Shown: positions 49,130 through 56,594 of the stretch, piece after piece
Layout of the letters: each line of letters begins with the position of its first letter
Numbering within the stretch: the stretch's first letter is position 1
Origin: Sphyrna mokarran
Lineage: Eukaryota
Direction of reading: 5' to 3'
DNA length: 64,000 nt
NCBI GenBank assembly: GCA_024679065.1
Contig: JAGIQG010000005.1
Coordinates: 107,136,001 to 107,200,000 of the forward strand
Notes under the pieces: model-generated
Seen by the model: the letters and a program-made list of their open reading frames with translations, nothing else
Databases searched by the model: none
What the model was told of the DNA's origin: nothing
Translations under genes and position numbers: made by a program

Positions 49130-50252
49130 GAGAAGGTGAGGGGGCATGGGATCCAAGGGACTTTGGCCTCGTGGATCCAAAACTAGCTTGCCGGCAGAAG
49201 GCAGAGAGTGGTTGTGGATGGGTCTTTTTCTGCATGGAGGTCGGTCACCAGTGAAGTGCCCCAGGGATCTGTTCTGGGACCCCTGCTGTTTATCATTTTC
49301 ATAAATGACCTGGATGAGGAAGTGGAGGGATGGGTTAGTAAGTTCGCCGACGATACAAAGGTCGGTGGTGTTGTGGATGGTCTGGAGGGATGTCAAAAGT
49401 TGCAGCGGGACATAGACAGGATGCAAGACTGGGCGGAGAAGTGGCAGATGGACTTCAACGCGGATAAATGTGTAGTGGTCCATTTTGGCAGAAATAATGG
49501 GATGAAGGAGTACAATATAAGGGGTAGGAGTCTTAGCTGTGTTGAAGAGCAGAAGGATCTTGGGGTCCGGGTCCATAGGACTCTTAAATCGGCCTCGCAG
49601 GTGGAGGATGTGGTCAAGAAGGCGTATGGTGTACTGACCTTCATTAATCGAGGGATTGAGTTTAGGAGTCGGGAGGTAATGATGCAGCTTTATAAGACCC
49701 TTGTCAGACCCCACTTGGAGTACTGTGCACAGTTCTGGTCACCTCACTATAGGAAGGATGTGGAAGCTATTGAAAGAGTGCAGAGGAGATTTACAAGGAT
49801 GTTGCCTGGATTGGGAGGCAGGCCTTATGAAGATAGGTTGAGGGAACTAGGTCTCTTCTTCCTGGAGAGACGAAGGTTGAGAGGCAATCTGATAGAGGTT
49901 TATAAAATGTTGAGAGGAATAGATAGGGTGGATTCTCAGAGGCTATTTCCCCGAGCTGAAATGGTTGCTATGAGAGGACACAGATTTAAGGTGCAGGGAA
50001 GCAAATACAGAGGGGATGTTAGGGGTAAGTTTTTCACTCAGAAGGTGGTGAGTGAATGGAATTGGCTGACATCGAAGGTGGTAGAGGCGAACTCGCTGGG
50101 GTCTTTTAAAAGATTTTTGGATGAGTATATGGGAACTAATGGGATGGGGAGTTACAGATAGGTCTGTGGCTTGGTAGGGATAGACGTGATCGGCGCAACT
50201 CATGGGCCAAAGGGCCTGTTTGTGCTGTAGTGTTCTATGTTCTATGTTCTAT
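49130..50252 (+). mobile_element. CR1 LINE, 5'-truncated, open RT C-terminal half
   Basis: ORF 49208-50161 (317 aa): VPQGSVLGP, FADD, LEYCAQFWSP; (TTCTATG)3 tail. Confidence 0.95.
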
Positions 50253-51401: not shown

Positions 51402-51614
51402 AGGCAGCTCTCAGTTGCCTGGTTCAGGTCCTTCCAGTCCGACTCAAGTCTACAGATGTTTACATGGTCCAACTGTTGACTTTGGCAAGACTGGAAGATC
51501 CCTCCAGTGAAAAGGGCTGAAAAATTCTGTCCAAGGACTGCACTTCAGAAATTTGAAGACCAAGGTTCGGAGGAAATGAGAGGGAACTGGACAAGACATT
51601 TAAAAACATTTTCG

Positions 51615-54603: not shown

Positions 54604-55887
54604 GTTGTCATAAGGCTCATAAGGGCAGGAGTAACTATGACTCTCTTATTCTTCGGTGGGTGAATGGGAGAGTCATGGTTACAATAGCTGTGCGAATCTT
54701 GTCGCTTCTGTAGCACAATGAGCTGCGCCTCCTTGACAGTCCCGCCGGGCAACATTGCTGCTACTCCACCGCGGTGATGACTAAAGCAGCTGTCCAAGGA
54801 GCGATGCAGATGTTGTTGTATGTCTGGCTGTCCGCAGTCAGACTGCAATTACAAACAAGTGCTTGGGATTGGCTAGTATCCATTCGTGCATAAAGGCTCG
54901 TTTGTTAGCTGATCCCAGTAACTGTGCGATTCTTCTGGTTTCTAGCACACAGTGAGTCAATCCCTTCCGCGGGAGCCACCTGGTATCGTCTCCGTGGGCA
55001 CAGGAGATGGTATTCCATGACTGACCGAGAAGCTAATAGCAGGGGCGACTCATGCTAAGACCACGACCACTACCACCAGACTGCCAGCCAGGAGTGGTAT
55101 CATTGGAATGGTCTCTGGTATGTTTCGCATAGCTGTGGTATTCTTGGCGTTCTAGACCACGGTGAGTCAATCCTGACAGAGGTCCCGCAGGGTATTCAGG
55201 CCTTCAAGCTGGCAGGTGAATGGTCCTGAAGGGAATTTGACTGGCCGAGAACAGCCAGCATGCTTCTATACCTATAAACCCGGTTAATTGTGAAAGAAAA
55301 AAATTTTTGTCTTGACAGGTTTCGGCTTGACCCGGGGATAGTTGGTGATTTGCTGACGGATGCGGTCACGCCTATCTAGGGAGTAGAAAGCACCTCTGCG
55401 ACCTCCTGCCCACACGATCGGCACAGAGGAAAAGACACATAGATCTGAACTTGGTGTGACGCAGAGAAGGGATGCCCAGGGGCTGGGCGTGGTTGACAGC
55501 GATGGGCGCAGCTCCCGGCGTTGTGCGAGCGATTCTCATGCCACGGTCGCGTTTTCAGCAATGTAGTTTGTTCATTGCGCGGGCGTGTCTCCTAATAAAT
55601 AAAGGCTCATTTTTGCCTCAAATGATGATTTATGGGTAAACGGCTCGAGGCTGACGAGCAAAAACTAACCTGCACGTCAGGTGCTCCCAAAGGTGTGATT
55701 CAATCTGCTTGTCTGCAATTATGGTAGTTGTTGCCGCATCTTTCTGATCATTTCCCCGTTTCCACCTATGCCCTACGGCTGTGTAACATCAGGTGGATGT
55801 CACTCTGATTCCATTCAGAAGTGCACAATGCACGTCAACGAGCGACAATAAAAGTCAGATAAGACACCCTCACGAGTGTCTCTTAAA
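54604..55887 (+). ncRNA. Putative array of structured ncRNA units (~210-235 nt period), foreign composition
   Basis: Three clear repeats at 54685, 54919 and 55130 plus degenerate ones at ~55339 and ~55564; conserved predicted fold with compensatory changes; stem mismatches largely G-U on + strand; CpG-rich; no credible ORF. Confidence 0.6.
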
Positions 55888-56165
55888 ATAGCAAGGTTGG
55901 CTGAGAGATGCACATTGGCCAGATTACTGGGGACAACTACTGTCTGCTTCTTCAAATCGTGAGAAGAAAATTTGTCTACACACTTGAGAGGCTAGGCCGG
56001 GGTTTGGATGGAATCCTCATTTTCATGTCTCTTTAACTTCATTGGTGTCATGGCCCAATTGCATTCAGCCATAATTGGTTGCAAATCAGTAGAATGCTGC
56101 AAAGATGGCAGAAATGTTGGCATCAGGAGCCAAATGACTGCTCAATGTGAGCATGGACTCATCTG

Positions 56166-56594
56166 GAGGGGCATACACGTGATGGGTCGTGAGAGGACTG
56201 CTCTTGGACCTTTTTCGAGAGTATTCTACTGCTTCACATCGTTAGTGTATGCTTGACCTGGACCATCTGATGGGCAACACGACAGCGCAGTGACTACAGC
56301 TGTGCTGTGCAGATACATGGATTTGGGCCTGTGTCTGTGGGAGTTTGCGCATTCTCCCCGTGCTTGCGTGGGTTTTCTCCAGGAGCTCTGGTTTCCTCTC
56401 ACATCCCAAAGATGCGCTCTTAGGCTAATTGGCAAAACAAATTCTCACTAAATTGTCTCAAATTTGGTTTTTAATACATAGATCTATAAACATGGACAGG
56501 GATCGCGTGTAGAAGTGGGAACATCGAGGTGGCGGTGCAGGCTCATTGGGCCGAAGGGCCTGTTTCCCGTGCTGTTTTGTTCTTTGTTCTTTGT
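56166..56594 (+). mobile_element. 3' UTR-only copy of the CR1 subfamily with V-SINE core
   Basis: Closely similar to 61100-61525 and 32325-32712; TTCTTTG tail. Confidence 0.8.

Follow-up and report, generated by a model that had tools for sequence, protein, structure and literature searches.

R2 retrotransposons bear, at the 5' end of their RNA, a ribozyme of the HDV-like type, for which the -28 site is the commonest place of cleavage (Eickbush 2013, PMC3774820). The moth R2 ribozyme cleaves at this site, and its activity depends on J1/2 and on downstream RNA (PMC3774820). J1/2 domains activate HDV-like ribozymes, as documented together with drz-Agam-2-1, in which a structured J1/2 and an extended P2 pinch P1 and P2 (PMC4908430). 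Several relatives of R2 depart from the autonomous, rDNA-resident form. The SIDEs of Drosophila are non-autonomous elements within rDNA that combine one active ribozyme with an R2 3' end and integrate by target-primed reverse transcription (TPRT) (PMC3414825), and the flatworm families R2NS-1_SMed and R2NS-1_CSi reside outside the 28S genes (PMC5035012). R2 elements are also present in cartilaginous fish (PMC12247875). Work is under way to turn R2 proteins into tools for RNA-only gene insertion, an application whose efficiency is limited by the template's 5' module; use of the template is raised by the ribozyme fold, and stability of the 5' end is a limiting factor (PMC11331408, PMC12222951).

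Here, we describe an element found in a window of 64,000 nt of the Sphyrna mokarran genome, which bears three consecutive fold units, A, B, and C, at its 5' end (Table 1). Each of its parts has a known relative: the R2 ribozyme, the SIDE, the non-specific R2, the cartilaginous fish R2, and the R2 3' module. We consider it probable that the units make up the 5' portion of a retroelement that is dispersed, encodes no protein, and is likely moved by the R2 of this genome; cutting is predicted for the first of its HDV-like folds, and the second and third are likely non-cutting structural blocks. The identity of the element and of its folds is held with high confidence. Like the R2 ribozyme (PMC3774820), the head has a P1 5' strand drawn from the leader, the core, the catalytic C, and a structured J1/2, but it contains three folds in a row, two of them without the catalytic strand, and an additional helix. 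The family shares with the SIDEs its non-autonomy, the ribozyme head joined to an R2 3' end, and TPRT, whereas its dispersal, triple head, and swapped tails set it apart (PMC3414825). As with the R2NS families, R2 is found outside the 28S genes; unlike in the flatworms, this is a vertebrate-type R2 with a 28S leader and passengers (PMC5035012). The J1/2 domain of drz-Agam-2-1 is a hairpin inside J1/2, whereas here the loop also pairs 3' of P2 (PMC4908430). The silk-moth R2 likewise has a pseudoknot associated with its extended ribozyme, to which the R2 protein is reported to bind (PMC6765202). In the literature searched, we came across no case in which dispersal is combined with a triple head, conserved dead folds, and a third pseudoknot, and nothing on tandem dead R2 ribozymes.

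Table 1. Positions of the element, its leader, fold units, and tail in the window
Feature	Position	Strand	Remark
Whole ORF-less R2-type passenger element	54624..55889	+	Copy in the window lacks ~77 nt at 55475 compared with relatives
28S rDNA-derived leader	54624..54649	+	Same letters in rDNA locus L031; PMC3774820
Unit A, P1 5' strand	54624-30		First 7 nt of the leader; one P1 mismatch in the window copy (54627)
Unit A, predicted cut site	immediately 5' of 54624		-28 site
Unit A, J1/2 hairpin	54631..54682	+	Pairs the leader back (P1.2-type)
Unit A, core	54683..54808	+	P4 present
Unit A, extra hairpin	54688-93/54713-18
Unit A, extra pseudoknot	54702-09/54797-804
Unit A, P2	54721-26/54786-91
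Unit A, P3/L3	54727-40
Unit A, P1 3' strand	54740-46
Unit A, catalytic C	54781
Unit B	54857..55039	+	J1/2 hairpins, P2, P3, P4
Unit B, P1	54857-63/54975-81
Unit B, extra pseudoknot	54936-43/55028-35
Unit B, J4/2	55013-17		Without canonical C-N-A-A
Unit C	55038..55259	+	Long J1/2 hairpin, P2, P3, P4; no P1.1
Unit C, P1	55038-44/55183-89		First position unpaired
Unit C, extra pseudoknot	55145-53/55248-57
Unit C, J4/2	55231-36		Without C
Non-coding middle and tail	55260..55833	+	Source sequence not found; sister subfamilies have helper 3' UTR instead
Terminal ~55 nt	55834..55889	+	75% identity to the autonomous R2 3' end

The element is dispersed, free of ORFs, and ~1.33 kb long. When the genome was searched with it and the best 40 of 537 candidates were scored, the 39 other copies were 87 to 91% identical, and the match extended from ~54624 to ~55890 in 30 fetched loci; family copy numbers are to be read as lower bounds (at least). 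Copies begin with letters that in the single recovered rDNA locus lie a short way upstream of the R2 site, at the -28 position; this locus was the only site returned by an rDNA search of the assembly and lies at a contig end. Among 22 copies chosen by their 3' end alone, 15 begin in this leader and the remaining 7 are 5'-truncated with the same 3' end. A further 14 copies, chosen by a middle segment, include 9 that begin there, bringing the total to 24 of 36. The 3' end of the element is fixed, and the letters that follow it are T, A, and G in 37, 30, and 25 of 39 junctions, respectively. No target duplication longer than 7 nt was found in the 25 copies examined. The fixed 3' end and the 5' truncations are the two marks by which TPRT was judged, and together with the lack of such duplications they represent its footprint. 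The ribozyme head, the R2 3' end, and the absence of an ORF place the family with the R2 SIDEs, but the copies are flanked by ordinary DNA and not by the R2 site of 28S rDNA, in an assembly with one recovered rDNA site, so that copies in rDNA may exist as well. By analogy with the vertebrate 3' module (PMC12180492), the terminal ~55 nt are likely the docking site for the R2 protein.

Two other identities were considered and rejected. The element is not a simple internal deletion of a resident R2, as its head and middle could not be aligned to the autonomous helper element described below outside the leader, the core, and the last 55 nt. Neither is it an LTR element or solo LTR, as it has no TG...CA ends and no short target duplication.

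Several individual insertions deserve mention. Ten of 27 passenger copies (L003, L004, L005, L006, L010, L015, L017, L026, L029, and L030) lie in one and the same site of a common LINE, in which several older helper copies were found as well. As judged from its resemblance to part of the R2 leader, this site is a secondary target. At locus L165 (G000:C771:117264800-117271800), two copies are arranged head to tail, with the passenger 3' end directly joined to the unit A hairpin of the next copy, likely as the result of a template jump. Two independent insertions, L150 and L154, are both truncated to element position 380, in the loop of P4 of unit B, and another independent pair, L248 and L251, to positions 184 and 187, just behind the extra helix of unit A. 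These repeated truncation points, few as they are, may reflect stops of reverse transcription at structure.

A pattern of the ribozyme core matched the genome 77 times, versus 18 times for a control pattern. The 20 loci fetched from these matches comprised 8 elements of ~4.9 kb that share the leader and contain a single ribozyme, 8 sister passengers, and 4 unrelated sequences. The protein of the ~4.9-kb element matched vertebrate R2 structures (PDB 9NL3) with an E value of 5e-166 and silk-moth R2 with 2e-73. It is encoded by a single ORF with a zinc finger, reverse transcriptase, and restriction-like endonuclease, and R2 is its closest relative; the element, referred to as the helper, is an autonomous R2 and is dispersed like its passengers. 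In a search with the endonuclease region, of which the best 150 of 614 candidates were scored, at least 9 had an open frame of 1345 aa or more.

The sister passengers contain up to ~630 nt of helper 3' UTR at 75 to 86% identity, whereas the window subfamily has only the last 55 nt in common with the helper 3' end, at 75%. Since the tail match is confined to these 55 nt, it does not single out the exact helper of this subfamily. A parent with the triple head or with the tail of the window subfamily was not present among 8 + 30 + 20 helper loci and may exist among the 614 candidates, the best 150 of which were scored. Three helper copies are worth describing individually. The one at L183 is preceded by an exact 79-nt duplicate of the 3' part of its own ribozyme and start codon (469-547 and 688-766), showing a route by which a 5' module can be duplicated during insertion. 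A second (L181) apparently has a ~27-nt duplication on its two sides, which sets it apart from the passengers examined, and in a third (L247, G000:C794:25231000-25237200), an open frame of 1358 codons crosses the ribozyme before the first AUG.

The three units had been read in an earlier note as three-way junctions, each consisting of a closing stem around two hairpins of unrelated sequence and followed by a conserved 3' motif. All six closing-stem strands, the UGAG, and the three 3' motifs were found where they had been placed; the 3' motif also occurs at 51527 and 57236 of the window and is therefore weak by itself. That the units repeat beyond chance was confirmed. They can be aligned almost without gaps, and across 27 units from five subfamilies the structure is paired in 88% of cells, compared to 33 to 45% in slid controls. 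With a mean column identity of 68 to 70%, however, the units are homologous, and their hairpins are not of unrelated sequence. The architecture is also a different one, for which a known ribozyme does provide the match that the note had missed, namely the HDV-like ribozyme of R2 retrotransposons. The supposed closing stem corresponds to P2 and the second hairpin to P4. The first hairpin was correctly drawn for unit B, where it is P3, but not for A and C, where the partner belongs to the P1.1/P1 strand, and the pairing proposed for C is not kept in sister subfamilies. UGAG and CUG, for which a catalytic or protein-binding core had been suggested, form the base of P2, and RAGRA is one strand of a peripheral pseudoknot and not part of a new catalytic core; the conserved letters may still bind a protein. 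What had gone unnoticed was P1, as well as the conserved hairpin situated just before every unit and the base pairing between the loop of this hairpin and the 3' motif. On sequence grounds, the units are three homologous, collinear HDV-like folds of the R2 type, with P1 of unit A derived from the 28S leader.

Covariation was assessed over the same 27 units, the rows of which are related. Two-sided changes numbered 84, versus 36 in shuffles; of the five shuffle measures, just two are conspicuous (0/500), again with related rows. Four of the six pairs of P2 show two-sided change. P3 is 90% paired, and its two C-G pairs are kept in 27 and 24 of 27 rows, while P1.1 is 59% paired over all units and fails in most rows other than those of unit A. 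P4 of units B and C was judged by eye. Minimum-energy folding returned nested structures and missed the pseudoknots. In Logan, contigs of two other organisms cover the units; two contigs of one of them (organism C) extend from A into B and from B into C and reveal a compensatory change in P3 of unit C. The earlier proposal of selection on RNA structure is upheld by the pairing relative to controls, by the two-sided changes, and by the lower divergence of the units compared to their linkers. Rfam gave no match at gathering score and three chance matches by E value in this region of the window. This result, together with the conserved flanking letters, would suit a new three-way-junction ribozyme or riboswitch built around UGAG/CUGNCCRAGRA. 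Such an interpretation is nevertheless extremely improbable: the fold can be threaded onto the HDV double pseudoknot, its P1 being supplied by the 28S leader, the catalytic core recurs in the helper R2 (19 of 21 letters identical to unit A), and the full motif was found in none of the 117 loci listed in a metagenome pattern scan.

In its family state, unit A exhibits the nested double pseudoknot of P1, P1.1, P2, P3, and P4, a catalytic C in J4/2 followed by N-A-A, and the U and G of L3. Of 30 copies, 27 carry the catalytic C of unit A, the other 3 being unparsed. Family-typical unit A is predicted to be a self-cutting HDV-like ribozyme, to which the 24 of 36 copies that start in the leader point indirectly. 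The window copy keeps C 54781 and differs from the family at 54734, 54738, and 54780, three changes that are damaging. Due to these changes in L3, P3, and J4/2 and to the P1 mismatch, it is probably dead.

In addition to the HDV-type helices, all three units contain an extra pseudoknot, formed between the loop of a J1/2 hairpin and the strand right behind P2. The hairpin upstream of each P2 is 94% paired, with two-sided change in 2 of 7 pairs and another 2 of 7 invariant. For the helix between loop and strand, the pairing is 88%, 5 of 9 pairs show two-sided change, and 3 of 9 are invariant. When single duplexes were shuffled, the A-type pairing was reached in 3 to 41 of 2000 trials, the C-type in 44 to 390 (a mixed result), and the B-type in 177 to 633, which makes it weak alone. 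A U-A-U triple helix on this knot found no support, as an older subfamily changes the third and purine strands in a non-matching way. In the helper, this hairpin recurs with another loop sequence, and its partner strand differs to match; the pairing is reached in 34 to 47 of 2000 shuffles. At least 6 of its 7 pairs form in 19 of 20 copies parsed from 28 loci, and in all 20 the 3' strand of the knot ends on the A of the first AUG, which offers a testable handle on translation start of the uncapped R2 RNA. A spacer hairpin precedes the partner strand in 14 helper copies; 6 older ones are without it and have the passenger spacing. A model of the passenger units picked up the helper ribozyme at all 8 helper loci and at none of the 6 control loci. 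As its scores were only 11 to 14 bits, homology of the helper knot rests on topology and on the shared 5-bp stem. A published description of the extra helix was not found in the literature searched, in which primary papers and R2 supplements were incompletely covered.

Units B and C possess P1, P2, P3, and P4, and lack the canonical catalytic C and an intact P1.1; they are classed as HDV-type folds and not as ribozymes. In the commonest patterns, 6 of the 7 pairs of their P1 remain (from 93 loci, many of which are without the units, 70 copies of B and 67 of C were parsed). J4/2 of unit B is non-canonical in 29 of 30 copies and holds two C. In unit C, it is G-rich in 27 of 30 and has no C at the aligned place in 29 of 30, and the first position of P1 is unpaired in 65 of 67. 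Copies that start at the predicted cut sites of B or C (element positions 234 and 415) were not found among the 22 and 14 copies considered above (0/36), a count that is blind to cut products that fail to insert. Units B and C likely no longer cut. Slow cleavage by one or both, or cleavage via another cytosine, releasing short RNAs or circles, appears improbable. It would be in line with the retention of all four helices, with the two C in J4/2 of unit B, and with the wide variation that R2 ribozymes tolerate (PMC3774820), but it is at odds with the missing C, missing P1.1, and unpaired first P1 position of unit C and with the lack of genomic copies starting at either site.

Despite the loss of catalytic features, units B and C diverge less than the linkers in all ten pairs of subfamily majorities (built from 30, 3, 3, 6, and 1 copies). 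The differences in B plus C versus linkers amounted to 9/254 versus 34/192 (p 5e-7), 13/254 versus 28/189 (p 7e-4), 29/250 versus 34/140 (p 0.002), and 27/250 versus 26/144 (p 0.047) in the four pairs tested. Their divergence is below or about equal to that of unit A (e.g., 4/123 and 5/131 versus 18/127). These values bear on the view that repeated 5' capture or template jumping left B and C behind as neutral relics, which recombination between subfamilies has kept similar. R2 enzymes do jump between templates (PMC3414825), heads and tails have been swapped within the passenger family, and both the head-to-tail copies at L165 and the 79-nt 5' duplication of the helper at L183 fit such a history. 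Even so, we regard neutral relics as quite improbable, given that low divergence follows the borders of the units and not the linkers in all four tested pairs and that changes within the units are compensatory.

We propose the following sequence of events for the family. The element would be transcribed by read-through, and unit A would cut at the -28 site, leaving an uncapped 5' end. In each fold, the extra pseudoknot would clamp J1/2 onto the strand leaving P2 and thereby stiffen it, in keeping with the activating J1/2 domains of HDV-like ribozymes (PMC4908430) and with the need of moth R2 ribozymes for J1/2 and downstream RNA (PMC3774820). The R2 protein would bind the 3' module and reverse-transcribe the RNA at the nick, and the leader would anneal to loosely similar target DNA so that the 5' junction can be finished. 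The role of units B and C is likely RNA protection, by analogy with the R2 templates discussed above, although we are much less sure of this than of the identity of the element and folds; that they serve specifically as reserve barriers against 5'-3' degradation of the uncapped template is given slightly less than an even chance. A mutant of the catalytic C at the 5' end of a template was severely inhibitory (PMC11331408), so that benefit from a dead fold cannot be taken for granted.

The main rival to RNA protection is that B and C are retained for binding the R2 protein or ribosomes, a set of three such handles letting the passenger out-compete the helper RNA. This is possible, if on the doubtful side. 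Several letters of the units are invariant beyond what pairing needs (the pseudoknot and hairpin pairs that never vary), the helper knot ends on the first AUG in every parsed copy, and R2 ribozymes with IRES-like activity are described along with binding of the R2 protein to a pseudoknot in the extended ribozyme (PMC6765202). The invariant letters of the passengers, however, differ from those of the helper, which is odd for a decoy of the helper protein; the passenger has no ORF; and finch R2, the closest solved relative of the helper, can cut each of the two DNA strands without its 5' UTR (PMC12222951). A more elaborate version, which we think rather unlikely, holds that a triple-pseudoknot form of the HDV fold, whose third knot sets the start codon in the helper, was duplicated and lost catalysis, and that selection holds the two dead copies more strongly than the live one because, as a stackable hijacking module, they recruit ribosomes or the R2 protein. 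If units B and C no longer cut and are locked by the extra pseudoknot as predicted, a fold of ribozyme origin would have been put to use as a structural component. The passenger family amounts to a natural selection experiment on the 5' module, suggesting that non-cutting, clamped HDV folds improve passenger RNA. Its dispersed copies also record relaxed choice of R2 targets in a vertebrate-type lineage.

The window surrounding the element is AT-rich and contains reverse transcriptase fragments of the LINE type, and no notable ORF was present in the region of the three units. A 317-aa C-terminal fragment of a LINE reverse transcriptase, which we take to be CR1-like, is located at 49208-50161. 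A common short repeat adjoins the element at 56270-56448, and a similar segment was observed in the helper 3' UTR and in sister passengers (L182 and L175).
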